A stretch of 64,000 bases of DNA from the sequence record NZ_CP104305.1; one strand, 5' to 3'. Origin of the DNA: a plasmid. The notes beneath the pieces were generated by a model. The model had not been told where the DNA came from. It was given only the letters and a program-made list of their open reading frames with translations, and did not search any database. A program made the position numbers and the translations under genes. Of the stretch, positions 6,932 to 25,449 are shown in pieces. Each line of letters opens with the position of its first letter. The first letter of the stretch is position 1.

Positions 6932-6940
6932 GCTTTCTTT

Positions 6941-8110: not shown

Positions 8111-8118
8111 GCAGACAA

Positions 8119-8349: not shown

Positions 8350-8366
8350 TCTGGATAGCTCCTTTC

Positions 8367-8891
8367 TTAGTCATGACTTGCCTGGGATTGATTGAGACGA
8401 TAAAGCGTACACCCAACAATCTTCTGTTGCGACATTGGCAAGCGCATCACTAAATCGTTTTTAACTGCATTACCATCGCTGGTAATCGTGTAGGCCAGCC
8501 GCACCATGGCTATTGTTTGGTGTCCCACTTGCGCATAAGTGATCTCGCGATGCTGATACGTTACCTTATAAGACAAATCCGGGCCAACACCTGCTTTCCC
8601 GATATTTGCTGGGGGTACCAGTTGATCAGCGACAGTTTTCGTAGATAATTTCTCAATAGCATCGTGCCGTTTTTGCTGGTCAGCGTGATACCCAACCACC
8701 AAGTCGGCAAATGCAATGACCCGTTTATCAGTTTTTGCGGACTGGCCAACCGTTGTGGCTCTCAAACGCGTTGTCGTCGCCTGTAAGGCGTCCTGGCTAT
8801 CAGCAAAGCGATACCACACAACAATCATTAAAACCGTCACAAGGAGCGCATAAAGAGGTAAAAGCCAACGCGTCCATCTACGTTCTTCCAT
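8367..8891 (-). CDS. T4SS-associated membrane protein (possible VirB8/TcpC analogue)
   Basis: 174 aa with an N-terminal TM helix (WLLPLYALLVTVLMIVVWY); operon position between hydrolase and downstream genes. Confidence 0.35.
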   Translation of the reverse strand: MEERRWTRWLLPLYALLVTVLMIVVWYRFADSQDALQATTTRLRATTVGQSAKTDKRVIAFADLVVGYHADQQKRHDAIEKLSTKTVADQLVPPANIGKAGVGPDLSYKVTYQHREITYAQVGHQTIAMVRLAYTITSDGNAVKNDLVMRLPMSQQKIVGCTLYRLNQSQASHD

Positions 8892-8905
8892 ACTTTCCCT
8901 TCTTT

Positions 8906-11404
8906 CTACCGTGGGTGAATGTAGGTGTAAGCACCGACATTACCTAACGTTTGTAAATTCGGCCCTGGTTGTTGCTTAAAGCCCGTTCCGCCTTGCGAGA
9001 TGGTAATGGTTCCTTTGTCGGAGTCAACAGCTTCTACATAGGCAACATGGCCGTATACAGGGTCTGCTTGCCAGTTACCGACCATTTGACCGGCGGCAAA
9101 GCTCACTAAAGCGCCTTGTTGTGGGGTGTGATCGACACTAAAGCCTGCGGCGGCTGCTGAGTTTCCCCAGTCAGCACCATTGCCCCAGTTATTAGCCGCC
9201 CACCCGGAGCGTGCTTTTGCCCACCAAGTGCATTGACCAACCGGGTAAGAGTTCCCTCCGTTATGCAGCGTGATATTGCCAATCGAGTCACCACTCTTAA
9301 ACCCAAAGATGGCTAAGAGTTTGTTGACGTTAGGCACCCAGTTCAAATTTAGGTTGTTAGGATCGTTCAACGCGCCAACAGGTGCGTAAGCAGCGCCCAA
9401 CTTTTGAACAGTGTTTAGTCCTCTCGTGACAACTAGGTTGTGCAGGGTGGTGCCAGTGGCATCAATCCCAGCTTCCAGTGAAGGGTAGGCAATAATCGTC
9501 CCACCACTCATTTGACCACTAGGATTGTTGGCGCCACGAACCGCTGCACTGGTGCCCCATGAAGATTCAGTCCCCATGATAGCGGCAATCAAGGCCGGAT
9601 TGACCCCTGCCTTTTTCGCGGCATCAATCGAATAGCTTTCCTTGTCTGCCAAAACGCCGTTAGAAAAATACTTCACCCACGCCGCATGAAACTTGCCAGC
9701 GTCAAAGTCCTGTCCTGTCAAGTCGCCCCCGCTAGTGACCAACCCGTAAGTGGTCGCGTAAGTGTACTTAACATTTGGTAGCGCAAAAGCAGGGTTGAGT
9801 TCTTCTTCGATCGGCTGAGCAGGCGAAGCACTGCTTGTACTCTCAGATGAACCCGAACCTGACGTGCTGGTAGCCGGTGCGCTTGAAACACTCCCCTTGG
9901 AAGTCAAACCAGGCGTCGAGGGGACGCTATCAGAGTCCGTCGAAGATGATGGTGCGGTTGAAGATTCCTGGGGCGCACTCTGTTGCGTAATTTTGGTGAG
10001 TTGCAGCGTGATATTCTTTTCGCTTGTTCCTATTTGGTCTCCTTTCTTAACTTCCTGATAGGGTTTAACACTGATTGTTTTGAGACCACCAATGACAGTG
10101 CGCTTGCTGTCGGTGGCAATCGTCACACTGCCGTTTGAGCAGGACAAAACAGTGCCAGACATAACGGCAACAATCTTCTTGCCAACGTCACTAGAAATAC
10201 GAATATGATTCGACATATTCTTCTCACCATTTCGCAATCGCCAAGCATAGCGGTCATTAACCATGATGGTCTCGTCTTGATTCTCAAAGGGCGACCCTAA
10301 AATCTCTTGCGTGCGATACTGCCCGACTTGTTGCATGGCATCGAGGCGGTCTTTATCGTTTTGAGAGAGGGCTTTAGGGTGGTTCTTTTCCCATTCATCA
10401 AAACTAGACAAATTGACGGTCACAGTTTTTGCATCAACTGTGACCGTCATCATCTGATCATGTAATTTTTTAATTTTTTGTTTGAAGGCATCGTCAACTT
10501 TGAAGTCGTCATACTTAATCGACAAATAAGCCAACTCACGGTCAAAGTCAGAGATGAGTTCAATCCCATCAGTGGTAGCTTCTTGACCGTTAATAATGAG
10601 TGAGCGTCCGCTTGTGTTCGCCATACTATCAATGAATTCTTTAGTGGCATCAGTATCCAACTCTGTGATGTAGCTGTAAGCATCAGTCAAAGGCTTAGAA
10701 TCGGCGGTTGTTGACATTGCTGGCACAAGCCAACCAAACATGGAACTCATCATCGCAAGTAAAGAAAATGCAATCCCTATTATCAGTATGATAGACACAG
10801 ATTTAATCATTATCGGGACTGACAGCAGAAGTTTTAACATTTGCCTTGCAGAGCTAATCGGGTGACGCCAAGATAGGGTTGCGCCCTTCAAAGCACGCTG
10901 CTTCATCATCTTTCGGATTGACTTACGACTGTATGAAGTTTGTACCGGTTCGCCTAACTTCTTTGCTAGTCGCTTGCCTTTTCGATTTCTATGACGCTTT
11001 CGTTGTGCCCTTAATCGACTGGCACCTTGTTTAGTTTTTGCTAGGGACTGATACGTTGGATCGTTTTGGTCTTCATTCTGCTGGCTGTTGTTAGCAGCTA
11101 CTACAGCACTCTTTTTTGCGGTTTCAACTGCGCCATGTTGAAGTGCTTGTCGGCTACGATGGCGGAAACGTTTGACCCAACCCGCCTGTTTCTTTTTCGC
11201 CTTGGCACTTTGAGCTAACAGGCCACGTCTAAACTGGCCTTTTTTGCGAACAAAACGTTTACCACCAAAGCCACCAACGCCTTGTATACGGTATTTATTG
11301 CCACGCAGGGCTTTCTTAAACCGACTAGGATCAGCGCTCACTAAAGCATCTTTAGGGTCATGATGCTGCTTGTTAAGCAGCATCTTCTTCCAACTATTCG
11401 CCAA
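8906..11404 (-). CDS. T4SS peptidoglycan hydrolase, PrgK/TraG-like (basic N-terminus + TM, lysozyme-like domain, C-terminal CHAP domain)
   Basis: C-terminal CHAP signature (QCTWWAKARSGW ... GHVAYVEAV); central lytic-transglycosylase/lysozyme-like block (AAIMGTESSWGTS); Lys/Arg-rich cytoplasmic N-terminus then TM; overlaps the virB4 start. Confidence 0.7.
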   Translation of the reverse strand: MANSWKKMLLNKQHHDPKDALVSADPSRFKKALRGNKYRIQGVGGFGGKRFVRKKGQFRRGLLAQSAKAKKKQAGWVKRFRHRSRQALQHGAVETAKKSAVVAANNSQQNEDQNDPTYQSLAKTKQGASRLRAQRKRHRNRKGKRLAKKLGEPVQTSYSRKSIRKMMKQRALKGATLSWRHPISSARQMLKLLLSVPIMIKSVSIILIIGIAFSLLAMMSSMFGWLVPAMSTTADSKPLTDAYSYITELDTDATKEFIDSMANTSGRSLIINGQEATTDGIELISDFDRELAYLSIKYDDFKVDDAFKQKIKKLHDQMMTVTVDAKTVTVNLSSFDEWEKNHPKALSQNDKDRLDAMQQVGQYRTQEILGSPFENQDETIMVNDRYAWRLRNGEKNMSNHIRISSDVGKKIVAVMSGTVLSCSNGSVTIATDSKRTVIGGLKTISVKPYQEVKKGDQIGTSEKNITLQLTKITQQSAPQESSTAPSSSTDSDSVPSTPGLTSKGSVSSAPATSTSGSGSSESTSSASPAQPIEEELNPAFALPNVKYTYATTYGLVTSGGDLTGQDFDAGKFHAAWVKYFSNGVLADKESYSIDAAKKAGVNPALIAAIMGTESSWGTSAAVRGANNPSGQMSGGTIIAYPSLEAGIDATGTTLHNLVVTRGLNTVQKLGAAYAPVGALNDPNNLNLNWVPNVNKLLAIFGFKSGDSIGNITLHNGGNSYPVGQCTWWAKARSGWAANNWGNGADWGNSAAAAGFSVDHTPQQGALVSFAAGQMVGNWQADPVYGHVAYVEAVDSDKGTITISQGGTGFKQQPGPNLQTLGNVGAYTYIHPR

Positions 11405-13877
11405 TCACCTCGCCTCCATCTTCATGCTGTTTCTTACGAGAAATGTATTGCTCCATATCTTCTGGTTTGGTAGACATGATCTTATAGAGCTTCGTCTTTT
11501 TTGGAAAATCATTCTCAAACGGAATAACGGCGTCACCGGCGATCATTAGGCCATGACCGGAATCAGCGTTAGTAATGTAGCCTTCCTCTTGCTCCGACAA
11601 ATGCAACATATCCGTGAGTTGATCACGGTCATTTGCGGCCTGGTCAAGTAATAGAACAAACTCACTGTTAGACAACATACGGCGGGCATTGTCACTTAGT
11701 AACAATGTCTCAACGTTCTGTGTGATGCCGGTTGGTAAAGCGCCCCATTTACGAGCGCGTGACCACAACTCGAAGAAGTAGTTTGAAGCAAATTCGTTAC
11801 TTAACAGGAGCTGCATTTCATCGACATAAATCCACGTCCGTTTGCCTGAGTTCCGGTTCTTTGTGATTCGGTTCCAAATTTGGTCAAGCACAATCAACAT
11901 ACCCATGGAACGCAGGTTTTTACCTAAATCTTTGACGTCATAAACTACCACCGAATTGTCGTTATCCACGTTGGTTTGATGCGCGAACACAGACAATGAC
12001 CCTTCGATGTACGGCTCCAGTTCAAGCGCAATTTGCTTGCCTTCATCTTCTGGCTGAAGCTTGAGAGTGTTCGACAGGTCAACCATTGTTGGCATGGCCG
12101 TGTGCTGCTCAAAATAACGTTGGTAAGTCAGCCGACAAGCACGGTCAATCAAGGTACGCCGTTCAGCGGACAAGCCGTTTTTACCGCCAAGCAACATATC
12201 GCACATAGAAAGAATAAAGTCGGTTTTGAAGATAACGGGGTCTTCGTCATCACCGTAATCTTCGTTAATCTCCATTGGATTGATATGAGCGGTTGCGCCT
12301 TGAGAAATTGGAATGACTTCACCGCCAAGTGCTTGTGCAACGGCAGAATACTCACGTTCAGGATCAATAATCAGTACCTCAGAATCAGCATCACGGAGCC
12401 GTACTGACAACATTTCTTGTTTGCTGGCAAAGGATTTACCAGCACCAGGACGTCCTAAAATCATACCGTTGCCGGCTTTTAAGTTTCTCCGGTCAGCAGT
12501 CACTAAGTTCTGCGTCACTTGATTGACACCATAAACTAGACCACTGCTATCGCTCAATTCTTGCGCTGTAAAGGGAATAAAAATAGCGGCCGCTGATGTT
12601 GTCAGTGTCCGCGAGACGGGTAGATAATTCTGTCCCCACATCAGCACTGAGTTAAGCGCTGCTTCTTGGAGATAATCTAGGTTGGCAAATTCGCAACTGT
12701 GACGACGGCCGGTAGCTTTGATCTGCTCAATAATTTCATCGAGCTGTTGGTCATTCTTGCCTTGTGCCATGACCAAAAACGTCACATCAAAGAGTTGCTG
12801 GTTATCGTCTTGCATTTGTTGAAGCAAGTCCTCAGCTTCATCAAGACTGTGCGTCAAGTTCTCCGGTAGAATATCTGGGTCATAACCGGCCTTCATGGCT
12901 TTCTGCTGCTCATCAGCCTTTTGCTTTTGCATGAAACCTTTCTTCGTCTGCACCATCTTCATACCCTTGACTGGGTCGATTGGGTGAATCTGAATTGAAA
13001 TTTCTAAGTCGGCCATAATGTCTGTCAGGTCAGTAATTAAGCGATCACTAATTTCTGGCGGATAGTCCCGCAAATACAACACCTGCGCCACTTCATCGCC
13101 CATTTCAAAACGGTTTTTGGCGTGCTTGAAGTTGAAACTGGTCGGCGCAATCACAGAGTGCGTGGTCAGACCGCTAAACTTGAGGTCGTCATATTCAAAG
13201 TGAAGCGTCGTGCCAGGCCGTAAAGTCGCGTTCGCGAGCTTTAAGCGGCGCAAACCATTGAGCGGTCGTGCTGTTGACCCCATTTGGTGGAAACTCGTGA
13301 TGACGTTCGCTTGAAGTTGATTCAAACTTGTTTTGGCGCGTTGGCGATTGTCTGCGCGCTGCGTGAAGGTCACATACTTCTCCTTGAGCAGGCTCGTGTT
13401 GCCACTCTCCACCCGTTCTCTCATGATATGGTTCATTTCATCACGGAGCGTATTCAAATCGTCTGGTCGGTGCTTAAAGGACGTCTCCTGCATAAACTGA
13501 CGAATATCCTTCCTGCGATTGATGATATTGACTTGTACAGATGATTCACTGTCAAAACCATTGAGGAACTCAGCATACTTGCTAAAAATGTCGCTCTGAT
13601 GGTCACGATCACTAATTTGGTAGTTAATATCTGAGATCGCGACACTTTTTGAAAACACCCCAGGGGCAACCTCACACAAACCATCTTCATACATGGCGCG
13701 ATAAGCCAGACTGTCCTGTGTTGCCCTTGAAGGGGCATCTTGACGTTTCTGTTTCCCGCGTTCCTTTTTATGGCGCTTTAGTAGCTTCAAAGCCTTGTTA
13801 TGACTGTTCGTCTTCGTACTCTTTGATCTTGTTTCGGTTCTTGTGAACATGAAGGCTAACCTCCTTTCGATTCTCAT
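11394..13877 (-). CDS. VirB4-family conjugal transfer ATPase
   Basis: Walker A GRPGAGKSF, Walker B-like VYVDEMQLL, size ~800 aa, N-terminal DINYQ motif typical of Gram-positive VirB4 homologues. The exact start is uncertain (it overlaps the upstream ORF). Confidence 0.8.
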   Translation of the reverse strand: MRIERRLAFMFTRTETRSKSTKTNSHNKALKLLKRHKKERGKQKRQDAPSRATQDSLAYRAMYEDGLCEVAPGVFSKSVAISDINYQISDRDHQSDIFSKYAEFLNGFDSESSVQVNIINRRKDIRQFMQETSFKHRPDDLNTLRDEMNHIMRERVESGNTSLLKEKYVTFTQRADNRQRAKTSLNQLQANVITSFHQMGSTARPLNGLRRLKLANATLRPGTTLHFEYDDLKFSGLTTHSVIAPTSFNFKHAKNRFEMGDEVAQVLYLRDYPPEISDRLITDLTDIMADLEISIQIHPIDPVKGMKMVQTKKGFMQKQKADEQQKAMKAGYDPDILPENLTHSLDEAEDLLQQMQDDNQQLFDVTFLVMAQGKNDQQLDEIIEQIKATGRRHSCEFANLDYLQEAALNSVLMWGQNYLPVSRTLTTSAAAIFIPFTAQELSDSSGLVYGVNQVTQNLVTADRRNLKAGNGMILGRPGAGKSFASKQEMLSVRLRDADSEVLIIDPEREYSAVAQALGGEVIPISQGATAHINPMEINEDYGDDEDPVIFKTDFILSMCDMLLGGKNGLSAERRTLIDRACRLTYQRYFEQHTAMPTMVDLSNTLKLQPEDEGKQIALELEPYIEGSLSVFAHQTNVDNDNSVVVYDVKDLGKNLRSMGMLIVLDQIWNRITKNRNSGKRTWIYVDEMQLLLSNEFASNYFFELWSRARKWGALPTGITQNVETLLLSDNARRMLSNSEFVLLLDQAANDRDQLTDMLHLSEQEEGYITNADSGHGLMIAGDAVIPFENDFPKKTKLYKIMSTKPEDMEQYISRKKQHEDGGEVIGE

Positions 13878-14169
13878 ATAGCCTTAAACCATTCATTTGT
13901 TGGTAGTGCAGAATAATCCCGATGTACTTTTCTAGCGGCAAGCCTTTAGGCTTAATCCAGCCAAAGGCCAACACCGGCATATCTAGGGGAATTAGCAAAT
14001 TACCGGCACTATCCATTGACCAGTGCAGTCGCCATACAAGGAAATAAATAATAGCCGCTGAATAAACAGCGGCTATCGTGGCACAGATAAGTTGTCTTAA
14101 ATCCATTGTCCCGATAATGCGTTCCTTGTAGGACTTGATTTCCTTTGGAACACGTACACGTAATGCCAT
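13798..14169 (-). CDS. VirB3/PrgI-like small membrane protein
   Basis: 123 aa, two hydrophobic helices, immediately upstream of virB4 and overlapping it. Confidence 0.45.
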   Translation of the reverse strand: MALRVRVPKEIKSYKERIIGTMDLRQLICATIAAVYSAAIIYFLVWRLHWSMDSAGNLLIPLDMPVLAFGWIKPKGLPLEKYIGIILHYQQMNGLRLYENRKEVSLHVHKNRNKIKEYEDEQS

Positions 14170-14184
14170 TCATTTTCACCTCAC

Positions 14185-15018
14185 TTACATGGCAGTTGTC
14201 AGTGACTTCGCCCAGGCATTGGTCTGGAAAACAGCAAAAATAAGCAGAATAGAAAAGCCAAGCAAAGAAGCAATCATAGACCACAAACCGGCCGATGCCA
14301 TATTCGCAAATGCTGTTTTTACCAAGAACGGATAGAACAACTGCACCATGTAGATCAGGGTGCCTTGTATGGAAACAGCCATAAAACTTTTGAAAAAGTT
14401 TTTTGCAATTCCTGAAAATTCGTGGTGTGGCATCGTTGAGATTGGGATTGGAGCCACGGCTAAAAAGACGTACATTTGTAAGAACCGTCCTGTGACAACA
14501 ACGTTGACAAGAACACCAGCCAACATAGTAATTAACATAACAATGATCAAAACCAACCAGATCATTAGTTTTGTCCAAAAACTTTCTTTAGTGATTGGCT
14601 GGTAAATATCATTCAAACTGATTAATCCACTAATTTTCCCGTTGCTTACCAACTTACCAATGCCTTTTGAAAGAATAATACTAACTTGCAAAATTGCATT
14701 CATAAACAAACTCATACTATCCATTGCGATCTTGCAAAATGCCACCTTCACTAAGGCGGCTGAAATCAGCCTGACCCCTGCATCTGAACCACCTCCCATT
14801 GCTTCGACTTGTTCCGAAATACGATACAATTCAAGCAATGCAAACAACGCCAAAATCGTATAACCGACGGGCTTCATAACGTTGGTTTGAATTGCCATCG
14901 CAAAACCATACAGATCCTTACTCCAACTAGACAATGAAGAAGTAATACTATTCGTTCCAGCAGAATTAAGGATTGAATCTAAAATGAACTTAAGCTCACC
15001 CTTGATGGCATTGTCCAC
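14185..15018 (-). CDS. VirB6-like polytopic T4SS membrane protein
   Basis: 277 aa with at least 5 predicted TM helices, located between the coupling protein and virB3/virB4. Confidence 0.5.
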   Translation of the reverse strand: MDNAIKGELKFILDSILNSAGTNSITSSLSSWSKDLYGFAMAIQTNVMKPVGYTILALFALLELYRISEQVEAMGGGSDAGVRLISAALVKVAFCKIAMDSMSLFMNAILQVSIILSKGIGKLVSNGKISGLISLNDIYQPITKESFWTKLMIWLVLIIVMLITMLAGVLVNVVVTGRFLQMYVFLAVAPIPISTMPHHEFSGIAKNFFKSFMAVSIQGTLIYMVQLFYPFLVKTAFANMASAGLWSMIASLLGFSILLIFAVFQTNAWAKSLTTAM

Positions 15019-15036
15019 TTGCGTTTGCCTCCCTTA

Positions 15037-15297
15037 CTAAGTTAAAGAAATCGAGTTAAACAGCGCTCCAGCAGCAATGATTAAACCACCACCAGCAATC
15101 GTCCAGATACCACTTTGAATACCAGGGCCATTGTGATCCTTCAATGCACCGCCAAGGCCAACTAAGCCCCATGCGGCGTAAATAGAACCGCCCGCAATCG
15201 CGAATTTAGCCATCAGTGATACGGCTTGTGTTAAAACGTTCATATTCTGTTCCTCCTTATGATTAAGCTTCTTTGACGATTTGAGTTTGCTCATCAA
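15037..15297 (-). CDS. small Gly-rich hydrophobic protein (possible VirB2-like/pilin-like component)
   Basis: 86 aa with two hydrophobic Gly/Ala-rich helices; overlaps the T4CP gene end. Confidence 0.35.
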   Translation of the reverse strand: MMSKLKSSKKLNHKEEQNMNVLTQAVSLMAKFAIAGGSIYAAWGLVGLGGALKDHNGPGIQSGIWTIAGGGLIIAAGALFNSISLT

Positions 15298-17083
15298 ACT
15301 CTTGCATTAATGCCACAGGCTCAACGCTTACCGGCACATTTAGTACTTGTGGCGTCACGTTTAAGTCTGGGTGATACACATAATCCGAGTGATCCATCTG
15401 TAACTCTTTGAATCGTGGGTGATTTTTTAATTGATATTTTTGAGACAAAAATGGCGGCACCCCTCTGAGCATATAAATGCTCTGGTCGCCGCCGATTCGA
15501 TCGACTTCATCTGGCGAAAGTAAATCCCGCGCAATTTTATCGTAGTTTTGGTTAAAGGAACTGTTACTACCTTTGGTTTCACCATACCGCTGCACATCAA
15601 TCGTTCCTTTGCCAAGAATCTCTGAAATGTACTTGGCGGTTTCACTATCGTGCCCGCCAAGATACAGCAGCGAGTCAGATGCACCTAGAATCGCTTGATA
15701 AGACTTTGGATAGCGTTCCTTAAGCTGGCTCAGTTCCTGCACGATTGGCACACAGAAAATGCCACGTGAACGCAAGGTGTTAATTCGCTTATCAAACTGA
15801 GGAATCTGACCACTGTTTGCAAATTCATCTTGCCAACAAACGACTGTTTCATTGAGACGTCCATTAGGTTGACGGTCTGCGTGTTCGACTAAAGTCGTAA
15901 ATAATGTTTGGTAGACCAAGCTCACTAAAAAGTTAAACGTTTCGCTTTGATCCGGTAGAATCAAAAACAAAATCTGCTTTTCGTCACCCAGGGTTGATAG
16001 GTTCAACGTGTCATCACTCGTAATATTGACAATGCTCGGTACATCAAACGGCGCTAAACGAACACCAAGCGAAATAACAATACTCATGGCCGTCTTAGCT
16101 GGTGCCAGCTTAAAGATGCCATATTGTTTAACCGCGAATGAATCTGGGTGTTTGACAGAAAATTCCGCAAAGATTTGATCGAGTGGCGTTTCATTACCAC
16201 CAGCATCTTCATCAATCGTTGCCAAGCGTACCAAATCCAAAATGTGCGGTAGATTACGCTTTTTAGGAAATTGCTGATCCAGTCTTGCATAATCAAACAA
16301 GGCTTGCATCAGTGCTTTCTCGCCTTTATCAAAAAATGGATCACTTTTACTCTGCGGCGAAGTTGTGTTTTGCATAATCGCGTTCACAACCTCAATAACG
16401 TCATCTTCATTATGGATATAAGCAAACACATTAAAATGATCAGTATGCTCGCGAGTGACAAGATCAAACACTTTTACTTTATAGCCAGAGTTTTCAAAGA
16501 AATTACCAACCCATTTTAGGGTCTGTCCTTTCGTATCTGTGACCACATAAGAGCTAGATCGTTGAAGCAAATTAGGTACGACAACGGTACGTGTCTTCCC
16601 TGAACCAGCGCCACCAATAACTGTCACAAATTGATTACGCTGCAACTTCATAGGACGTTCGTGGTTGAGATCGTTCAAATACAGCTTCTCAGTCGCTGTC
16701 ATGATTAAATTGTTATCGGGGTTCTTGGTGTCTTCAAACGGAAGAATATCTTTACGAGTCCCCCACTGTGCGCTGCCGTGTTCCTCGCCAGGTCGGTAAT
16801 TCTTTTTATTGGTGGCAACATACAATACTACCAACGCTACAACCGCCAGTAGAATCATGCCACCAAGAAATGGCTTACCCCTAAAAGTGAGCGGCCACCA
16901 TGCGACCTTACCAAGGTTGTCAGATACGAAAAGGACTTTGTCGATCATGGTTTTGGCATCTTCCGGCTTAACTGCATAAACAGCACGCGTCAGACCACTG
17001 CCGACACCATAAACAAGTAAGCCACCAAAGACACTCAAACCAACACGCCAAAGCAATTTTTTAAGCTGCTCTTTTTCCATCAA
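15263..17083 (-). CDS. type IV coupling protein (VirD4/TraG/PcfC family)
   Basis: N-terminal TM helices, Walker A VIGGAGSGKT, Walker B region, ~600 aa. Confidence 0.8.
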   Translation of the reverse strand: MMEKEQLKKLLWRVGLSVFGGLLVYGVGSGLTRAVYAVKPEDAKTMIDKVLFVSDNLGKVAWWPLTFRGKPFLGGMILLAVVALVVLYVATNKKNYRPGEEHGSAQWGTRKDILPFEDTKNPDNNLIMTATEKLYLNDLNHERPMKLQRNQFVTVIGGAGSGKTRTVVVPNLLQRSSSYVVTDTKGQTLKWVGNFFENSGYKVKVFDLVTREHTDHFNVFAYIHNEDDVIEVVNAIMQNTTSPQSKSDPFFDKGEKALMQALFDYARLDQQFPKKRNLPHILDLVRLATIDEDAGGNETPLDQIFAEFSVKHPDSFAVKQYGIFKLAPAKTAMSIVISLGVRLAPFDVPSIVNITSDDTLNLSTLGDEKQILFLILPDQSETFNFLVSLVYQTLFTTLVEHADRQPNGRLNETVVCWQDEFANSGQIPQFDKRINTLRSRGIFCVPIVQELSQLKERYPKSYQAILGASDSLLYLGGHDSETAKYISEILGKGTIDVQRYGETKGSNSSFNQNYDKIARDLLSPDEVDRIGGDQSIYMLRGVPPFLSQKYQLKNHPRFKELQMDHSDYVYHPDLNVTPQVLNVPVSVEPVALMQEFDEQTQIVKEA

Positions 17084-17562
17084 CGTTCACGTTCCTTGCT
17101 TCGTTGTCGTGTCCGCGTCTTTTTGTGTTCCTGATTGTGTTCTTTCGCAGTCGTCTTGGCTTTCTCAACCTTCTGTTCCCAAGTTTGATTGTTCTCAGGC
17201 GCCTTTTGAAAGTCCTTCACAACTTTTTCCAAGCCAAGATGAACACGGTCTATATCGTTACCACGGAAGAACACGTGAAATTCATTCGTGCCCTTTACCC
17301 TGATCATGGAGAAATCAATGTTGTATTTTTTGAACTCTTTCTTCAAAGCACGCAAATCTGTTTTATCAATATCGACGTGTTCTAAAGCACCTTTTTTTTG
17401 CAATTCAGCCAAATTTTGGCGGCCTGTGATGCGTTGATTGTGAATGGCCTGTTTGCTCACATCTATCACCTTACCAGGCAATTTAACAGCTAATAACTTA
17501 ATCACTTCTTGCGCTGTCATGGTCGATAGACGAAGCACATATTCCGCTGCTTGATTATCCAT
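17080..17562 (-). CDS. PcfB-like (DUF3801-type) protein that typically precedes Gram-positive T4CP genes
   Basis: 160-aa basic protein whose stop overlaps the T4CP start; positional and compositional match. Confidence 0.45.
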   Translation of the reverse strand: MDNQAAEYVLRLSTMTAQEVIKLLAVKLPGKVIDVSKQAIHNQRITGRQNLAELQKKGALEHVDIDKTDLRALKKEFKKYNIDFSMIRVKGTNEFHVFFRGNDIDRVHLGLEKVVKDFQKAPENNQTWEQKVEKAKTTAKEHNQEHKKTRTRQRSKERER

Positions 17563-17582
17563 TTTGTATCACCTACCCTTTT

Positions 17583-19124
17583 TTACACCGTCTCACTGAC
17601 TGTGATGGTCAAGGTTTGCGTTGTTGACTGACCAAATTTATCCGTGACGGTATACGTCAGTTCATAGCTGCCAGGCTTGCTCGTATCAACGGAACCATCA
17701 ACATCAACGGTAACAGCGCCATAAGGACTCGTTACAGTGACATTTGCCTTTGGATCAAACTGATCACCGACTTTAATCATGGTTGGCACTTTCGACAAAT
17801 CAAGTGTTGGCTTGTCAGCTTTAACGTTGACCGTGACTTGCTTGACCGTCTTTTGTCCGAACTTGTCAGTGACGGTATAGGTCAAATCATTGCTGCCAGG
17901 CTTGCTCGTATCAACGGAACCATAAACGGTCACATTCACAGCACCATAAGGACTGGTTGCGTTGACGTTAGCCATTGGTTCAAACTTATCTCCCACCTTG
18001 AGCGTGGTTGGCACTTTGGAAACATCAAGGGTCGGCGCAGTGGCATAGACACTAACTGTTCGTTTCACGCTTGTAACAGCGCCATTTTTGTCAGTCACTT
18101 CATACGTTAGCTCGTAGTCCCCTGGCTTGCTGGTGTCAACGGTTCCGGTCACTTTAATGTCAGAAGTCAAATCGCCGTCTTGGTAATCGTCAGCCGTCAC
18201 GCCTTGCTTTGGATCAAAGTCATGACCCACTTCTACGCGATTGTCACTAGCAATATGAATCACGGGAGCGTCATTGGTTACCACCACATCACGAGTTGCG
18301 CTTACAGTATGCCCTGCGCTGTCTGTGACTTGATAAGTGACTTGGTAAGTCCCTTCGGTATTAATATCCACGGTGCTGGCATAGACAACCTTGTGGGTCA
18401 AATCGCCATCTTCGGCATCATGCGCACTCACGCCGTCCATCAGGTCATAACTCTTTTGTCCCAGATGCAGATACAACACGTCAGCAAACGAGATTGTAGG
18501 CGCTTGATCGACTGGGGTTGGATTGCCAGGCGTTTGGTCGCCAGGGGTTTGGTTGCCAGGCGTTTGGTCGCCAGGGGTTTGGTTGCCAGGCGTTTGGTCG
18601 CCAGGGGTTTGATTGCCAGGCGTTTGATTGTCTGGTGTTGGTGTTGGTGTTGGTGTTGGTGTTGGTGTTGGCATCTCTACTACTGGTGTCGGAGTCGGTT
18701 CTGGTGCAGTCGGTGTATTATCCGCTGGCTTTGGTGTGTTTTGCTCTGCTGTTCCTTGATCAGCTAACGAAACCAAGTTTTGAGTATTGCTCGATGCAAG
18801 CTGTTTGGATAAATCATCTTTGCTGAATGGAAAGGCGGAGGCGGCTTGATTATCATTGCTACCACTAGGCAAGTCAGGCGCTAAAGCCGCTTGAATTTCT
18901 TTTTCAGTTTTGTTAGAAGAAGATGGCTCTTTTTCTTTCGCTTTCTTTTTCGTGCTGCCTTTCTTCTCTGACGGAAATAGCCACTGCTTGCTCGATGAGC
19001 TACTTTTCTTTGCTGACTGTGAAGTAGGCGCAGCATTTAATTGATACGCTGCATAGCCACCACCACCTAAAACAACGGCACTAATCAAGAGGATTGCGGC
19101 CGTTTTCTTTTTCTTGTTGAACAT
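17583..19124 (-). CDS. membrane-anchored surface protein with Pro/Thr-rich linker and four Ig-like (Big/DUF5011-like) repeats
   Basis: N-terminal TM, PTPTPTPTP and (TPGNQ/TPGDQ)n linker, then four ~75-aa repeats ending in YELTYEVTD/YTVTDKFGQ. Confidence 0.55.
   Translation of the reverse strand: MFNKKKKTAAILLISAVVLGGGGYAAYQLNAAPTSQSAKKSSSSSKQWLFPSEKKGSTKKKAKEKEPSSSNKTEKEIQAALAPDLPSGSNDNQAASAFPFSKDDLSKQLASSNTQNLVSLADQGTAEQNTPKPADNTPTAPEPTPTPVVEMPTPTPTPTPTPTPDNQTPGNQTPGDQTPGNQTPGDQTPGNQTPGDQTPGNPTPVDQAPTISFADVLYLHLGQKSYDLMDGVSAHDAEDGDLTHKVVYASTVDINTEGTYQVTYQVTDSAGHTVSATRDVVVTNDAPVIHIASDNRVEVGHDFDPKQGVTADDYQDGDLTSDIKVTGTVDTSKPGDYELTYEVTDKNGAVTSVKRTVSVYATAPTLDVSKVPTTLKVGDKFEPMANVNATSPYGAVNVTVYGSVDTSKPGSNDLTYTVTDKFGQKTVKQVTVNVKADKPTLDLSKVPTMIKVGDQFDPKANVTVTSPYGAVTVDVDGSVDTSKPGSYELTYTVTDKFGQSTTQTLTITVSETV
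18514..18672. repeat. in-gene tandem repeats (15-bp units x ~8, then 6-bp ggtgtt x ~7)
   Basis: ccaggcgtttggtcg / ccaggggtttggttg alternating, then ggtgttggtgtt...; encode the TPGNQ/TPGDQ and PTPT repeats. Confidence 0.8.
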
Positions 19125-19139
19125 GAATCATACCTCCTT

Positions 19140-19421
19140 TTAAGGCTGTGATCGCAGGAAGGACGCAAGCTCGGTTCCCGGTTCTAAAACCGCTTTAACT
19201 GTGGCGGCATTCGTTGGCACTACCCGAATGACCTTCCCAATTTGGACGGCATCAGGGCACATTTTCCAGCCACTTGCGTAACTGACAATCGCGTCTTGTG
19301 GCACCATCTCTTTACCCCCGCGCTTCCAGCGTGGTAGCAGCAATTCAATGAGGCCATGATGCACTTTCATGTTGCGCAGCTGAGATTGTTTCAAGAGAAC
19401 ATTTGCAGACATTTTAATCAC
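19140..19421 (-). CDS. hypothetical protein (second gene of a two-gene cassette)
   Basis: 93-aa ORF starting 4 bp after the upstream ORF ends. Confidence 0.35.
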   Translation of the reverse strand: MIKMSANVLLKQSQLRNMKVHHGLIELLLPRWKRGGKEMVPQDAIVSYASGWKMCPDAVQIGKVIRVVPTNAATVKAVLEPGTELASFLRSQP

Positions 19422-19425
19422 CTCC

Positions 19426-19725
19426 TCAAATTAAATTTTTGGGTACATCTGGCACGCGATTACCGTTGAATACCAAACTACCGTCACGTTGTGCTTGAAG
19501 ATACGTCACCCGCAGCACAAGCAAATGCGCTAACGTGCCAGGTGGCTGAATTTCACCAATGACAACTAAGGTACCTTTCTCAACCGGAAAACGAGTGTGC
19601 TTTTTAACCCAGTCCTTGCCGACAAGCACGGAGTAGGAAACACCGTTTTGAACGATCGGGCGTGTTAAATAGGTATCACGCAGCCAAATCCCTGATTGTT
19701 CTGCCATAAAAATCCTCCTTTCCAC
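19426..19725 (-). CDS. hypothetical protein with possible AbrB/MazE-like swapped-hairpin fold
   Basis: Segment IVQNGVSYSVLVGKDWVKKH resembles the G-S-x-x-V-x-I-P-K pattern of AbrB/MazE-type domains; strong RBS aaggagg. Confidence 0.35.
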   Translation of the reverse strand: MERRIFMAEQSGIWLRDTYLTRPIVQNGVSYSVLVGKDWVKKHTRFPVEKGTLVVIGEIQPPGTLAHLLVLRVTYLQAQRDGSLVFNGNRVPDVPKNLI

Positions 19726-19742
19726 ACAAAAACCCGTGTTAG

Positions 19743-19778
19743 AAAATCAACACGGGTTCCTTTATTGATGGCTTGCGC
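19743..19778 (-). terminator. rho-independent terminator (minus strand)
   Basis: Stem aacccgtgtt / aacacgggtt with a 9-nt loop; on the minus strand it is followed by tttttgtgtg. Confidence 0.55.
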
Positions 19779-19867
19779 CAAGGCCGCATCGTGGAATCGA
19801 ACCACGTACACCAGTTGCGGCGATGTTTTGAGTTTGCTATGCTACTTGAGCGTTAATACCTAAACAG

Positions 19868-19898
19868 AAGTGTGCCTCTAGGGCACGCTTTTTCTTTT
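19868..19898 (+). terminator. rho-independent terminator (plus strand) in an otherwise minus-strand gene block
   Basis: Stem aagtgtgcc / ggcacgctt (one G-U pair) followed by tttttctttt; it overlaps the stop codon of the 53-aa minus-strand ORF. Confidence 0.45.
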
Positions 19899-20039
19899 GC
19901 AAGCGCGTTCCCTATTTAATGCCTCTCGTTCTTCTTGACGAGAACAACGGCCGCTCACAACACAAGCAGCATAAAGCGTGAACAGTAACAATCCCAGGAC
20001 AATACCTAATATGACAAACAATATAAGCCTCAGCATCAT
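19878..20039 (-). CDS. unannotated 53-aa hydrophobic peptide (TM helix + basic/acidic tail), translationally coupled to the upstream RHH gene
   Basis: Hand-translated: MMLRLILFVILGIVLGLLLFTLYAACVVSGRCSRQEEREALNRERACKRKSVP. Its ATG overlaps the TGA of the RHH ORF (ATGA). It is below the 60-aa cutoff of the ORF track. Confidence 0.35.
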   Translation of the reverse strand: MMLRLILFVILGIVLGLLLFTLYAACVVSGRCSRQEEREALNRERACKRKSVP

Positions 20040-20230
20040 GTCATCTTCTTTCTAGGAATGTTTGTAGCTGGTATGAAACCTGCTTTGATCAATTCTGCTT
20101 CCGCGACAATTAGCCTTCTAAGAAGCTCAGAAGGCCGCTCGCCTGTCGCTTCACAAAGAAACTGGAGCTGTATTCGTTCCTCTGGTGTGATGGTAATTTG
20201 ATAACGACGATTGTGCTTGTTGACTACCAA
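20036..20230 (-). CDS. ribbon-helix-helix (CopG/MetJ-like) DNA-binding protein
   Basis: 64 aa; N-terminal RRYQITITPEE beta-strand motif typical of RHH proteins. Confidence 0.45.
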   Translation of the reverse strand: MVVNKHNRRYQITITPEERIQLQFLCEATGERPSELLRRLIVAEAELIKAGFIPATNIPRKKMT

Positions 20231-20250
20231 GGTTGCCTCCTAATCAAAAG

Positions 20251-20296
20251 TGACGTCACCCTCCATCGCTGTTAAGCAAAAGGTGACGTCACTTTT
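20251..20296. promoter_or_regulatory. candidate operator: inverted repeat of two TGACGTCA-containing half-sites upstream of the RHH gene
   Basis: aaagtgacgtcacc (20251-20264) and ggtgacgtcacttt (20282-20295) are reverse complements; each contains the palindrome gtgacgtcac. Confidence 0.4.
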
Positions 20297-20730
20297 ATTT
20301 TTACCGCTTGCTGGCAAAACGCCAACTTGCTCATAAATCGGCCATAATAAAAACCCCGACCAACAGTTGGGGGCTAGTCGAGGCATGAGAAAGAAGAATT
20401 GATCGATGAACGACACAGCGCATGACCTATTTTCCATTAGGTCTCTGGTGCCCGTTTACAACGCTGGATTCATAGGAAGAGTTAAACAGATATAAGGAAG
20501 TAGTCACCAGACGTTTTTTCTCCAGCGTCTGCGCACCCTTAACATAACAAAAATGACTTCTGTTGCCAAGGCAGTTTCGTTATTTCTTGCTGTCTAATGT
20601 TCCAGTCTGCAACAAAAAAGACAACTCATGAAGTTGTCCTTTGAAGATGAAGCATTCATAGTGTTGAAACACATTTATACTTAGTAGACACTCCCATAAC
20701 TACCGAAGAATGGTTCCCCTAGAACTAATA

Positions 20731-21120
20731 CTATTTCTTACTCTTTTTAACACGTTTTGCCGGTTTCTTGGCCTTAACGCTGGTTTTCAGTTTTAAGGCT
20801 GGCGTGAACTTAACGTTCTTGGTTGCTTCAATTTGGATTGGTTCCCCTGTTCGGGGATTGCGTCCTTTTCTTGCAGCCCGATCCGTCACTCTAAAACTGC
20901 CAAACTCGATAATTTGCACCTTTTCACCAGCAACCAGGGCATCAGTGATGACTTGATTGTAGAGATTAATAAACTTGCGCAGCTCCTCGCCATTACTGTA
21001 CATGCCCGCTTTATCAGCGGCTGTCTGCATTCGTTTAATCAGCATCGCCTTATTCACGGTCAGCGGTGTCGTTGCTGCTTTGGTTACGGCCTTTTTTGGT
21101 GTTGTCTTTTTCTTTGCCAT
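20731..21120 (-). CDS. HU/IHF-family histone-like DNA-binding protein with Lys-rich N- and C-terminal tails
   Basis: Core IIEFGSFRVTDRAARKGRNPRTGEPIQIEATKNVKFTPALKLK matches the HU beta-arm region; flanked by KKKT/AKKPAKRVKKSKK tails. Confidence 0.75.
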   Translation of the reverse strand: MAKKKTTPKKAVTKAATTPLTVNKAMLIKRMQTAADKAGMYSNGEELRKFINLYNQVITDALVAGEKVQIIEFGSFRVTDRAARKGRNPRTGEPIQIEATKNVKFTPALKLKTSVKAKKPAKRVKKSKK

Positions 21121-21294: not shown

Positions 21295-23535
21295 TTAACG
21301 ACTTTGACGCTTGTGGTAGTAAGCAAACCCACCAAAACCTAAGCCAATGACCAGCAATAGAATACCAAGCCAAAAGGCGACGTGGTTATTGCTATCACCT
21401 GTTTGTGGCATGGTGCCTGTCTTCTGTGCGACCGGTGCTGCTGGTGTTGTAGAAGATGGTGTCGTTGGTTTAACTGGTTTAACCACATTTTTTTGGTTCT
21501 TGTTGTTTTTGGCAGAAATCTCAATGACTTGACCGTCATTTGCAAGTGTGATGCCATCTTGCTCAAAGCTGCCTGTATACCCTTCTGGGGTTTTGGTTTC
21601 TTTCAAGCTGTACTTACGGTTAGCAACAATCGCAAATTCCGCATAGCCGTTCTTATCAGTTGTTGCCTTTTGCTGATTGCCAAAATCATCAGTCAACGTA
21701 AATTCCGCGCCAGCAACAGGGTTTCTGAACTGATCGACTTTGTGGATTTTGATGCTGCCAGTATTGATTTCATTCTTGGACGTGTATTCCAAAACTTGAC
21801 CATCGTTGGCAAGCGTAATGCCTGCTTGCTTGTAGGTGCCATGATAGCCAAGTGGGTTCTTGTTTTCTTCAAGAGTGTATGAACGGTTAGCAACAATCGC
21901 AAATTCCGCATAGCCGTTCTTATCAGTTGTTGCCTTTTGTTGATTGCCAAGATCGTCCGTCAACGTAAATTCGGCACCAGCTAAAGGTTTGCCATTCTGA
22001 TCAACTTTATGGACTTTCACAACGCCCTTATTCAACGTGTTCTTAGCCGTATAACTTAAAACCTGACCGTCATTAGCAAGTGTGATGCCTGCTTGCTTGA
22101 AGTTGCCGGTGTACCCTGCTGGGGACTTGGTTTCTTCAAGTGTGTACGTGCGGTTTGCAACAATGTTGAAGGAAGCAAGACCATCTTTGCCAGTCGTTGC
22201 CTTTTGTTGATTGCCTTGATCGTCAGTCAATGTAAATGCAGCACCTGCTAAAGATTTGCCATTTTGATCGACTTTATGGACTTTCACAACGCCCTTATTC
22301 AACGTGTTCTTGGCCGTGTAACTAAAGACCTGACCGTCATTAGCAAGCGTGATACCAGCCTGCTTGAAGCTACCTGTGTACCCTGCTGGGGTCTTGGTTT
22401 CTTCCAGCGAATACGTCGCGCCTTCGGCAATCGTAAAGGTAGCCAGGCCATCTTTACCAGTGACTGCTTTTGTGGCCGTGCCGTTGTTATCTGTCAAAGT
22501 AAATTCAGCACCAGCAAGCGACTTACCGTCCTGATCCACCTTGTGAACCTGCACCTTACCGGTTGCTCGCGTCCAGTTAGCCTGATTATTAGCAAGCAGC
22601 GGCTTAACGAGTCCGGCAATGAGTACCAGGCTGTCTTGATAAGTTTGCGCAGCGTCTGTATAAACAACCGGCACAATCGCGGACACATTGCCGTTGACAT
22701 CAAAAGTGATATTGCCAGTTAGTGTTGATGTTGGCACTAGGATTGAAAATGGTTGACCAACGGTCACCGTATTGTTGGTAATGGCGTTGCCTTTTGCATC
22801 GACAAGTTTCATACCAGGCACTTGGTTCTTGAAGTTCAGTGTCGCTGTGCCCTGCTGGTTACTGTTGACCGTGTAAGTGTACTTGTGATACCCATTTTCC
22901 TTTGTTTGACCATCTGCACTGATGGTAAAGGACGTGTTCGCCGTGTCCTTTTGGTTCATCACATTGTTATAAACCAACGTTGCGGCTGCTTTTACACGAT
23001 TAACAGCGTCTTGACCATATGGCGCATAGATACCGTCCTTGAAGGCGCCAGGACGTGATGCCTGCCAAACAAGTTGATCCCACGATAAATTGCCGCTGAT
23101 AACCCACGAAACCAGCTGAGAAGCATACCAGGCTTCCTGGTTCGTCAGTCCAGCAATATTCCAGTACGCTGTATCGCTTGCTGGGTGCGCCGTAAAGCCA
23201 TATTTGAACAGCCGATATTGTGCATCAGTTCCGAGCTGTCCCTTCTCGTGTGTTTGACCGATTGGAGATTCTCGTTGTGCTTCCAAACAGTAGGCGTAGT
23301 TACCATTGCTGTCTTTGTACGACTGGGAAATCAAGTAATTTAGCGACCCCGTTGGGGTTTTCACCATGGCGTAGCCTGCCCCGTCTGTATTCGCGGCATA
23401 GTCGCCTTTACTGAATGTCATGAACGCAGGCACGTCAGTATCTGCCGCCGCAGATACATGGTTGAGTTGACCGCCAATAAGTCCCAGTGCGACTGCACCA
23501 GTAAAAAAGGCGGCCTTTAGCCATTTATGTTGCAT
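21295..23535 (-). CDS. LPXTG-anchored adhesin: putative N-terminal thioester domain + 4-5 Cna-B/SpaA-type isopeptide repeats
   Basis: Signal peptide; YAYCLEAQ (Cys motif) and YASQLVSWV (TQxA[IV]W-like Gln motif) in the N-terminal ~300 aa; ~90-aa repeats (VKVHKVDQNGK...YTLEETK...GYTG); C-terminal MPQTGD sorting motif + TM + KRQSR. Confidence 0.65.
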   Translation of the reverse strand: MQHKWLKAAFFTGAVALGLIGGQLNHVSAAADTDVPAFMTFSKGDYAANTDGAGYAMVKTPTGSLNYLISQSYKDSNGNYAYCLEAQRESPIGQTHEKGQLGTDAQYRLFKYGFTAHPASDTAYWNIAGLTNQEAWYASQLVSWVISGNLSWDQLVWQASRPGAFKDGIYAPYGQDAVNRVKAAATLVYNNVMNQKDTANTSFTISADGQTKENGYHKYTYTVNSNQQGTATLNFKNQVPGMKLVDAKGNAITNNTVTVGQPFSILVPTSTLTGNITFDVNGNVSAIVPVVYTDAAQTYQDSLVLIAGLVKPLLANNQANWTRATGKVQVHKVDQDGKSLAGAEFTLTDNNGTATKAVTGKDGLATFTIAEGATYSLEETKTPAGYTGSFKQAGITLANDGQVFSYTAKNTLNKGVVKVHKVDQNGKSLAGAAFTLTDDQGNQQKATTGKDGLASFNIVANRTYTLEETKSPAGYTGNFKQAGITLANDGQVLSYTAKNTLNKGVVKVHKVDQNGKPLAGAEFTLTDDLGNQQKATTDKNGYAEFAIVANRSYTLEENKNPLGYHGTYKQAGITLANDGQVLEYTSKNEINTGSIKIHKVDQFRNPVAGAEFTLTDDFGNQQKATTDKNGYAEFAIVANRKYSLKETKTPEGYTGSFEQDGITLANDGQVIEISAKNNKNQKNVVKPVKPTTPSSTTPAAPVAQKTGTMPQTGDSNNHVAFWLGILLLVIGLGFGGFAYYHKRQSR

Positions 23536-23708
23536 TATTTCTCCTTCTTTCTGTTACTTCTTTGTTTGAATCAGTAACTTCCTTCACTACCAACTCACAT
23601 CGGCACCACCTCCCGAAAGGTACAAAAAAACAGCCAATCTAGTCGATTGACTGTTCTAAAGTCATTTAAATTTAGCGAAACCTTACCGGACAGCTACTGC
23701 CATACCAG

Positions 23709-24700
23709 TCACATTAAAGGCGTTCTCAAAAGTGCCAGCATTGATCCAACGGGCGCCGAAGACTGGATCAACAACGTGATAGGCACCATCTTTGAAGCCA
23801 TCAACGCTGACAACATGACCGTTCCAAACAGCACGTCCCCAGGACATTTGCTGGAACTTGGTTGTGCATTACTACTGCCACTATTACTAGAAACACCATT
23901 GCCACTAGTTTGACCCTGAGGTGCGTTTGTCTTGGTAGTGTTGCTAGCTGTCATTGTTGCTGCGGATTGACTACTTGCGGTTTGGCTAGAGGAAGTTGCT
24001 GTCTGTGCCGCAGCTAATTGCGAGTCACCTGCAGCTGCCTGCTTCTTAGCCTGCTCAGCTTGCTGATCTTTAGGCAGATTCTTGATGGCATCGTCTAATT
24101 TTGGTAAGTATTTATCCTTGAATGCTTTGACATTGACCGCATTGATAGCATCACGAGCCTGATTGATTTTCGTCTGATCTGGATCGCCGGTCGTAGCCGC
24201 TTTAACAAGTGCCACTGCTTTGACTTCACGATCAAGCAATGTTGCCTTGTCCTTAATAGTCGCCGCAAACTTAGCTTTATGTGCTTGTAGATAAGTAAAA
24301 TCATTGTTGAAGACTTGAATCTTAAAGTCCTCGTCTTTCAACACCTGATCCTTATCAAGCTCAGTATTCAAAGTATCTTGGACGAAGAAGATTTTCTTGG
24401 CCGCCTGCAACTGTTGTTGATCGACTTTGAACGTCTTCTGTTGTGCTTTCGACAAATCACTCCGCAGCTTATACACTTTATCCTTTTGCGTGTTGGCCTT
24501 AGTCAATGCCGCTTCGCTGAGCTGCTTAGCAGGCATCTCATACTTGCTGTCAGCGTAAAGACTTTTCACTTGCTTGGTCAGACGTGTCAATTGCGGTTGT
24601 CCCGCTTTTTTTGCGTTGATGCTTTAGCTTGATTACCACATCCGGCTAAAAGTAACCCTGACACTAAAATGATACCACCCGTTTTTACCATCATTTTCAT
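23709..24700 (-). pseudogene. lipoprotein gene interrupted by a homopolymer (A7) frameshift
   Basis: An ATG at 24700 with RBS aggagg encodes the lipoprotein signal MKMMVKTGGIILVSGLLLAGC (lipobox LAGC). It stops after the A7 tract (plus-strand T run 24606-24612). With one extra A it reads through into the 293-aa ORF 23709..24590. A possible second frame change exists near 23900. Confidence 0.45.
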
Positions 24701-25442: not shown

Positions 25443-25449
25443 CTCTAGA

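Follow-up and report, generated by a model that had tools for sequence, protein, structure and literature searches.

The gene at positions 21295..23535 (minus strand) of a 64,000-nucleotide (nt) stretch of plasmid record NZ_CP104305.1 (the window, to which all coordinates refer) encodes a protein that we take, with good confidence, to be a sortase-anchored TIE-type adhesin. It would carry a stalk of CnaB domains and a thioester between Cys83 and Gln300, and would most likely act as a mating-pair tether. The replicon is a conjugative Lacticaseibacillus paracasei plasmid, and its close relatives are typed MOBP/MPF_T. The open reading frame (ORF), as given by the ORF list and its translation, is intact, begins with ATG and specifies 746 amino acids (aa) followed by a stop; the AAGGAG ribosome-binding site in front of it is graded strong. 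A preliminary description of this DNA had singled out the motifs YAYCLEAQ, YASQLVSWV and MPQTGD, all of which are present in the translation, at aa 80-87, 137-145 and 709-714. The adhesin belongs to a known family, as class II thioester domains (TEDs) were described in 2018 and a role on a Gram-positive conjugative plasmid in 2021. A literature search returned nothing specific on the L. paracasei adhesin.

The N-terminal thioester domain

Sequence, profile and fold evidence together support the assignment of the N-terminal domain as a class II TED. When the N-terminal 332 aa were compared with the PDB by phmmer, 6FWY (the TED of Enterococcus faecium EfmTIE86) matched aa 49-324 with E=1.6e-44, 6FWV (BaTIE of Bacillus anthracis) matched with E=1.1e-11 and 6FX6 (SaTIE-TED of Staphylococcus aureus) gave a weak match (E=0.25). 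The class II TED fold was first defined from these three entries (Miller, Banfield & Schwarz-Linek 2018, PMC6194298). An AlphaFold2 model of the domain, built on 23 diverse homologues, is confident (mean predicted local distance difference test, pLDDT, 91.8; predicted template modelling score, pTM, 0.85). In a Foldseek search of the PDB, the model superposed on 6FWY with template modelling (TM) scores of 0.84/0.90 and a root-mean-square deviation of 2.2 Å over 297 columns, and on 6FWV with a TM score of 0.71. These were the only significant matches; no class I TED structure was found among them and class I TED gave no Pfam match for the adhesin. The modelled domain agrees with the class II fold, in which a class I-like head holds an inserted beta-sandwich of ~75 residues that forms a slipknot; the beta-rich segment corresponds to model residues 173-263. 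The proposal of the preliminary description that the N-terminal ~300 aa include a probable thioester domain is thus sustained, for a domain of ~295 aa, by both the 6FWY match, which is well outside what chance would give, and the fold comparison.

The TED of EfmTIE86, from vancomycin-resistant E. faecium, is 35-38% identical to that of the adhesin and has its Cys and Gln at the same positions. The L. paracasei domain differs from it by a loop insertion of ~9 residues at ~aa 161-170, modelled with low confidence. The TED of BaTIE is ~19% identical.

In 6FWY, continuous electron density joins Cys88 to Gln292 of EfmTIE86 in a thioester (PMC6194298). The bond-forming Cys of class II TEDs lies in a [YFL]C-Φ-ζ motif on beta-strand C, and the Gln in a weak ΦQζΦΦ motif on strand Q, close to the C-terminus of the domain (PMC6194298). 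Counting along the phmmer alignment places Cys83 on Cys88 and Gln300 on Gln292. Cys83 is the sole cysteine in the protein, and its motif Y82-C83-L84-E85 sits at the end of a predicted strand (model residues 50-53), while Y299-Q300-D-S-L stands at the start of the predicted terminal beta-hairpin. The match to ΦQζΦΦ at Gln300 is loose, with Ser at the fourth motif position, and the motif itself is loose too.

Conservation points to the same pair of residues. A word-indexed homologue search gave only 7 near-identical or fragmentary proteins, and the set from an exhaustive HMMER search was used for the conservation analysis instead. Across 23 TEDs with 19-36% identity to the query, invariance is confined to the columns Y82, C83, P91, G113, Q140 and Q300; Q300 is invariant in every homologue that covers its column, and W144 is conserved in at least 90% of the aligned TEDs. 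An hhalign comparison with TIEpLS20 (L007:6477-8780), the product of gene 34 of the Bacillus subtilis plasmid pLS20 (Gago-Cordoba et al. 2021, PMC8092201), gave 96% probability and E=2e-9, and set Cys83 on Cys68 and Gln300 on Gln256. Cys68 is essential to that protein, as the C68S replacement abolishes function (PMC8092201).

The predicted thioester is therefore Cys83-Gln300, with the Gln in YQDSLVLI. YAYCLEAQ was rightly identified in the preliminary description as the Cys motif, but the same text drew the thioester Gln from YASQLVSWV and this has to be revised. Since the Gln292 column is occupied by Gln300, YASQLVSWV holds the accessory residues Gln140 and Trp144. The accessory TQxxΦW motif is found on helix alpha-2, where its Gln and Trp adjoin the thioester and hydrogen-bond the Cys backbone, yet are dispensable for bond formation (PMC6194298). 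In the model, S139-Q140-L-V-S-W144 lies within a predicted helix (model residues 102-116). EfmTIE86 has TQLVSW where the adhesin has SQLVSW; Ser for Thr at this position is rare, occurring in 2 of 33 aligned sequences, the adhesin and one near-identical sequence.

The stalk and the cell-wall anchor

The TED is followed by exactly four tandem repeats of 89 aa (aa 326-681, with starts at aa 326, 415, 504 and 593), which have a DNA period of 267 nt and are 60-78% identical to the first repeat. Pfam SpaA (PF17802) matches them as four stretches with 225.6 bits against a cut-off of 23.1 (E=5.5e-68). The repeats had been described beforehand as four to five SpaA/Cna-B units of ~90 aa; the type stands, whereas the number is now fixed at four. 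A Lys/Glu/Asn triad is invariant across all four repeats. The triad of domain 2 falls residue for residue on Lys297/Glu343/Asn373 of BaTIE in 6FWV, and K510 of domain 3 falls on Lys384. These BaTIE residues form or catalyse isopeptide bonds seen crystallographically (PMC8092201). The repeats are thus supported as CnaB-type isopeptide domains with intact triads, and residue conservation would lead us to expect both the thioester and the isopeptide bonds to form in the adhesin.

The same overall plan is seen in relatives. BaTIE has a signal peptide, a class II TED, CnaB domains whose triads align with those of the adhesin, and an LPXTG anchor, but possesses three CnaB domains rather than four. 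The plasmid-borne EfmTIE86 likewise has a TED followed by a run of ~89-aa CnaB repeats, in this case five. At the N-terminus of the adhesin, a basic n-region, a hydrophobic core and a putative VSA-A cleavage site would constitute a Sec signal peptide, and the Pro/Thr-rich linker that follows the last repeat (aa 682-708) would be expected to span the wall.

The C-terminus of the adhesin consists of MPQTG, then DSNNHVAFWLGILLLVIGLGFGGFAYY, then HKRQSR. The LPXTG_anchor model TIGR01167 gives 22.6 bits (cut-off 15.9), and this score, with the tripartite arrangement, bears out the earlier reading of MPQTGD as a sortase signal. The first position of the sorting motif is occupied by L, I, M or F in homologues. 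The adhesin possesses neither the YPK pilin motif nor the LPxTGGxG triple-glycine signature, its tail reading MPQTGDSN. On the same plasmid, a SpaA-like pilin has VYPKN and LPHTGGTG and a SpaC-like pilin has LPHTGGQG, while the SpaB-like basal pilin has LPQTGD and so has the xPQTGD class in common with the adhesin. Substrates of class C sortases are marked by the LPxTGGxG triple-glycine, and the xPQTGD type of signal is tied to the housekeeping sortase A (PMC5536039). The MPQTGD motif, with no triple-glycine and no YPK, points to direct anchoring to the wall by the chromosomal housekeeping sortase A as the most likely fate of the adhesin, rather than incorporation into a pilus.

EfmTIE86 differs in this region, with a TGGIG-type tail in place of MPQTGD. 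A TIE86-like protein of E. faecium (L002:13833-16223, plus strand) ends ...PETVRTGGIGTSAF..., which has no canonical LPxTG and a TGGxG triple-glycine-like motif, and its gene adjoins those of two class C sortases. This tail looks like a non-canonical pilus-type sorting signal.

Table 1. Positions in the window of the adhesin gene, its parts and the flanking features
Feature	Position	Strand	Basis
Complete TIE-type adhesin gene	21295..23535	-	ORF list, translation, motif positions
Ribosome-binding site AAGGAG, ending 5 nt before ATG	23541..23546	-	Upstream sequence GAAAGAAGGAGAAATA-ATG
Predicted Sec signal peptide, aa 1-29, MQHKWLK / AAFFTGAVALGLIGG / QLNHVSA	23449..23535	-	Sequence inspection
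Class II TED, aa 30-325	22561..23448	-	phmmer against PDB, AlphaFold2 model, Foldseek
Cys83 codon (YCLE), predicted thioester Cys	23287..23289	-	Aligned with EfmTIE86 Cys88 and TIEpLS20 Cys68
Accessory TQxxΦW motif, here S139-Q140-L-V-S-W144	23104..23118	-	Conservation; role from PMC6194298
Gln300 codon (YQDSL), predicted thioester Gln	22636..22638	-	Aligned with EfmTIE86 Gln292 and TIEpLS20 Gln256
CnaB/SpaA domain 1, aa 326-414, triad K332/E379/N410	22294..22560	-	Pfam SpaA, repeat alignment, codons
CnaB/SpaA domain 2, aa 415-503, triad K421/E468/N499	22027..22293	-	Aligned with BaTIE Lys297/Glu343/Asn373
CnaB/SpaA domain 3, aa 504-592, triad K510/E557/N588	21760..22026	-	K510 on BaTIE Lys384; repeat alignment
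CnaB/SpaA domain 4, aa 593-681, triad K599/E646/N677	21493..21759	-	Pfam, repeat and BaTIE alignments, codons
Pro/Thr-rich linker, putatively wall-spanning, aa 682-708, KNVVKPVKPTTPSSTTPAAPVAQKTGT	21412..21492	-	Sequence
Sorting signal MPQTG-D, hydrophobic helix and basic tail HKRQSR, aa 709-746	21298..21411	-	TIGR01167, sequence
Remnant of two C39-like peptidase genes, deleted and frameshifted	23536..24700	-	Comparison with intact copies at L003
Co-directional downstream transfer cluster	1335..21120	-	Pfam domains of the ORFs; PGAP annotation of a plasmid with 96-100% identity

Position in the transfer cluster and the proposed role

The adhesin gene stands at the head of the transfer cluster, directly upstream of it and on the same strand. 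The cluster encodes an HU-like protein, a DUF5011/Ig-like surface protein, a DUF3801 protein, the type IV coupling protein (T4CP), VirB4, a CHAP/M23/glucosaminidase hydrolase, ArdC, the relaxase and a DUF3991/Toprim protein. The presence of T4CP, VirB4 and relaxase genes on an L. paracasei conjugative plasmid agrees with the conjugative element named as the source in the preliminary description. A promoter and terminator scan around the adhesin gene gave a site count no higher than in shuffled sequence, and the boundaries of the operon could therefore not be set. A TED gene is likewise located ahead of the transfer genes in pLS20 (NC_015148.1) and in a Bacillus paranthracis plasmid. A tblastn search identified the TED on 263 PLSDB plasmids (129 from Bacillus, 102 from Enterococcus, 30 from Lacticaseibacillus and 2 from other lactobacilli), consistent with the earlier statement that TIE proteins are frequently found on conjugative elements in that they are often plasmid-borne.

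TIEpLS20 is needed for mating in liquid (PMC8092201). It resembles the adhesin in having Ig-like stalk domains after a class II TED, in sharing the Cys and Gln columns and in being encoded early in the transfer operon of an MOBP/MPF_T plasmid, upstream of the coupling protein. The relationship is remote (~17% identity by hhalign; BLASTP E=5e-4). Further, TIEpLS20 lacks a sorting signal, does not depend on sortase and differs in a C-terminal region of ~250 aa, whereas the window protein has a classical sorting signal. The location of the adhesin gene at the head of a type IV secretion system (T4SS)/relaxase cluster makes donor-recipient tethering its most likely job, and with the analogy to TIEpLS20 leads us to favour mating-pair adhesion as the most likely role. 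More broadly, the adhesin probably helps donor cells adhere to recipient cells or to the host. PrgB, the aggregation substance of E. faecalis pCF10, is comparable as a plasmid-encoded, LPXTG-anchored adhesin that promotes mating aggregates in liquid (PMC8092201), but it has an unrelated lectin-like polymer adhesin fold, binds extracellular DNA and lipoteichoic acid non-covalently and has no thioester.

We propose that the adhesin would be exported by Sec, lose its signal peptide and then be processed at MPQTG by the chromosomal housekeeping sortase A, which would attach it to peptidoglycan. Each of the four CnaB domains would contain a Glu-catalysed Lys-Asn isopeptide bond, giving a stiff stalk that would keep the class II TED distant from the cell. 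Within the TED, Cys83 and Gln300 would form the internal thioester. Attack on this bond by an amine on the target surface would leave a permanent intermolecular amide bond, and the adhesin would in this way tether donor to recipient cells in mating-pair formation or aggregation, as has been demonstrated for TIEpLS20. Such thioester capture chemistry is established for SfbI and Cpa (PMC6194298; PMC8092201). The class I TED adhesins (SfbI, Cpa and FbaB of Streptococcus pyogenes; CpTIE of Clostridium perfringens) are the paradigm for covalent target capture (PMC6194298). In common with the adhesin they have the YC and TQxxΦW motifs and the Cys-Gln thioester chemistry that is predicted for it, but they are without the ~75-residue beta-sandwich/slipknot insertion.

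Several observations weigh against this proposal. The preliminary description had suggested a TED profile search as a check, and its outcome was unfavourable: Pfam TED_2 (PF20610) matched aa 73-108 only, with 15.9 bits against a gathering score of 27, and the NCBIfam thioester models gave no match at E<=1. These misses can be attributed to the insensitivity of the profiles to a fast-diverging domain. The rapid evolution of the TED is reflected in an exhaustive HMMER search, where just 32 of 1.84 billion cluster representatives matched at E<=1e-3. The failure of the curated profiles to detect the TED also accounts for the public name given by PGAP, 'SpaA isopeptide-forming pilin-related protein'. 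The proximity of Cys83 and Gln300 is deduced from homology and from superposition of the predicted fold. At the C-terminus, Pfam Gram_pos_anchor is below threshold (13.4 against 20), Met in place of Leu at the first position makes the sorting motif non-canonical and the closest full-length allele (locus L001, on pLPCN-3) has MPQTSD and not MPQTGD. The role in conjugation is drawn by analogy with a ~17%-identical relative that has no sorting signal, and the closest characterised homologue, EfmTIE86, belongs to a pilus operon rather than a transfer operon. Finally, a related plasmid (L004) keeps a 70%-identical TED at the junction with a very different transfer module. Its T4CP is 25% identical, and the adhesin is therefore not tied to one type of T4SS.

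The same molecule could instead be cargo, a colonisation adhesin that binds covalently to mucus, to fibrinogen-like proteins or to other host or food-matrix proteins and is of benefit in the gut or in dairy. We regard this as possible, if rather unlikely. The best-understood TEDs, those of SfbI and Cpa, do bind host fibrinogen covalently (PMC6194298; PMC8092201), the plasmid also encodes a SpaCBA-type pilus as another surface adhesion structure, clinical E. faecium plasmids encode EfmTIE86 within a pilus cluster and the TED at L004 is 70% identical beside an unrelated transfer module. Yet the position and orientation upstream of T4SS genes are kept in L. paracasei plasmids, pLS20 and the B. 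paranthracis plasmid, and TIEpLS20 has been shown by experiment to be required for conjugation (PMC8092201). Host adhesion and mating-pair adhesion are not mutually exclusive and could coexist. A further proposal would make the adhesin the tip subunit of the pilus, joined by the class C sortase (47267..48346) to the SpaA-like backbone pilin so that the TED is displayed on a fibre. The PGAP name, the fact that the plasmid also encodes a class C sortase and pilins, and the E. faecium homologue, which is encoded in a pilus operon and has a triple-glycine-like TGGIG tail, would all fit. However, the adhesin is without YPK and LPxTGGxG, MPQTG-D belongs to the housekeeping sortase A class, and the gene lies 24 kb from a pilus operon that already has its own VWA-domain tip pilin; we consider a place at the pilus tip improbable.

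It is more improbable still, to the point of being nearly dismissible, that the TED has decayed and lost its thioester, leaving the protein as a non-covalent Ig-like stalk, as the public annotation implies. The sub-threshold TED_2 score, the silence of the NCBIfam thioester models, the rare Ser for Thr in TQxxΦW and the decay of the neighbouring C39 peptidase genes could be read in this way. Against such decay, all invariant TED residues are kept, including the single Cys and Gln300, the confident model superposes on a crystal structure that contains the thioester, and the ORF is intact and preceded by a strong ribosome-binding site. Nor are the TQxxΦW residues needed for the bond to form (PMC6194298).

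Class II TED adhesins encoded at the head of a transfer operon, an arrangement seen in Bacillus, are with this adhesin extended to plasmids of food and probiotic lactobacilli, in which little is known of mating-pair formation. The adhesin leaves the current view of the TED family unchanged. The analysis corrects the annotation at residue level (Cys83-Gln300 and four isopeptide triads) for ~30 Lacticaseibacillus plasmids. L. paracasei, which is non-pathogenic, offers a tractable food-grade system in which to ask what conjugative TEDs attack on the recipient surface, and the adhesin could serve as a scaffold, for self-ligating surface display or as a 'covalent glue', in a food-grade host.

Alleles, the upstream peptidase remnant and other loci on the plasmid

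Alleles of the adhesin are found at L001:22300-24546 (minus strand) and L004:19905-22247 (plus strand) and as protein P0008. The P0008 allele has 657 aa and three repeats, and is shorter by precisely one unit of 89 aa. Over the signal-peptide region, the window allele is 97% identical to L004 and 65% to L001, whereas its TED is 98% identical to L001 and 70% to L004. These identities run in opposite directions and would therefore place a recombination junction within the gene, near its 5' end. Compared with window positions 15263-28710, L004 (NZ_CP136122.1) has a shared replication module, with RepA 93% and an adjacent 250-aa protein 98% identical, and a transfer module of the pLS20_p028/CD1115 type that is very different, as its HU protein (37% identity) illustrates. 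The idea that a conserved backbone carries the TED as a hypervariable spot was considered and rejected: the L004 transfer module is 25-48% identical as against 70% for the TED, and at L001 everything is 96-100% identical. A B. subtilis plasmid hit (H42) was also discarded as an example of the pLS20-type context; it adjoins a class D sortase gene and has no clear transfer operon.

Immediately upstream of the adhesin gene lies the remnant of genes for two secreted C39-like peptidases. It is 88% identical to aa 38-288 of the first C39 peptidase at L003, where the intact copies (L003:7824-10825) sit immediately upstream of the TIE gene of another L. paracasei plasmid. In the window, the N-terminus of the first peptidase is joined, in another frame, to the final ~54 aa of the second, the peptidase domains are deleted and an additional frameshift follows the lipoprotein-type signal. 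Pfam Peptidase_C39_2 matches the intact copies, one of which carries a LysM domain. A 293-aa ORF in this region (23709..24590), examined as a candidate partner protein, has no Pfam match and proved to be part of this pseudogene remnant.

A 45%-identical peptidase orthologue (L002:12321-13568) is encoded upstream of EfmTIE86 in E. faecium, so that a C39-like peptidase gene precedes the TIE gene both there and in relatives of the window plasmid. The E. faecium order is C39 peptidase, TIE, a true backbone pilin and two class C sortases, whereas here the adhesin gene stands alone at the head of the T4SS genes. This suggests that the pairing of peptidase and adhesin is conserved and was lost in the lineage of the window plasmid. 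A more specific proposal, which we hold to be doubtful, is that a C39-like peptidase and a class II TED adhesin form a conserved module of Enterococcus and Lacticaseibacillus plasmids, in which the secreted peptidase matures the adhesin or cuts the covalent tether between donor and recipient and so lets mating pairs come apart. The window lineage would then be an 'adhesin-only' variant and, if so, might show altered aggregation or transfer behaviour.

The transfer cluster encodes a second surface protein (17583-19124, minus strand) with an N-terminal membrane anchor, four Bact_surface_Ig-like (DUF5011) domains, a Pro/Thr-rich tract of TPGNQTPGDQ repeats and no sorting signal. Tandem DNA repeats of 15/30 nt are present in its gene at 18498-18671. 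This protein may be another component of mating contact.

The SpaCBA-type pilus operon is complete (47267-52904, minus strand) and encodes a 919-aa VWA tip pilin, a 241-aa basal pilin, a 339-aa backbone pilin and a 359-aa class C sortase, whose gene is the nearest sortase gene to that of the adhesin. The operon is flanked by insertion sequence genes at 52963-53883, 55192-56508 and 56819-57739. The pilus-operon stretch is present, over at least 80% of its length and at ~96-98% identity, on no fewer than 11 plasmids of L. paracasei or L. rhamnosus.

Elsewhere in the window, an island of low GC content (0.34-0.36 compared with ~0.45 elsewhere) at 32000-36000 (plus strand) encodes a 667-aa UvrD-like helicase (32952-34955), a 222-aa protein (34969-35637) with no Pfam match and a resolvase (35929-36606). 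This island may be an acquired defence or accessory cassette. Three large co-directional ORFs of 1003, 410 and 529 aa occupy 36795-42678 (minus strand). At L001:26982-27209, a 75-aa hypothetical protein is labelled by PLSDB/RGI as the aminoglycoside resistance gene APH(2'')-Ie at '100% identity'; from its size, this looks like a spurious database call.

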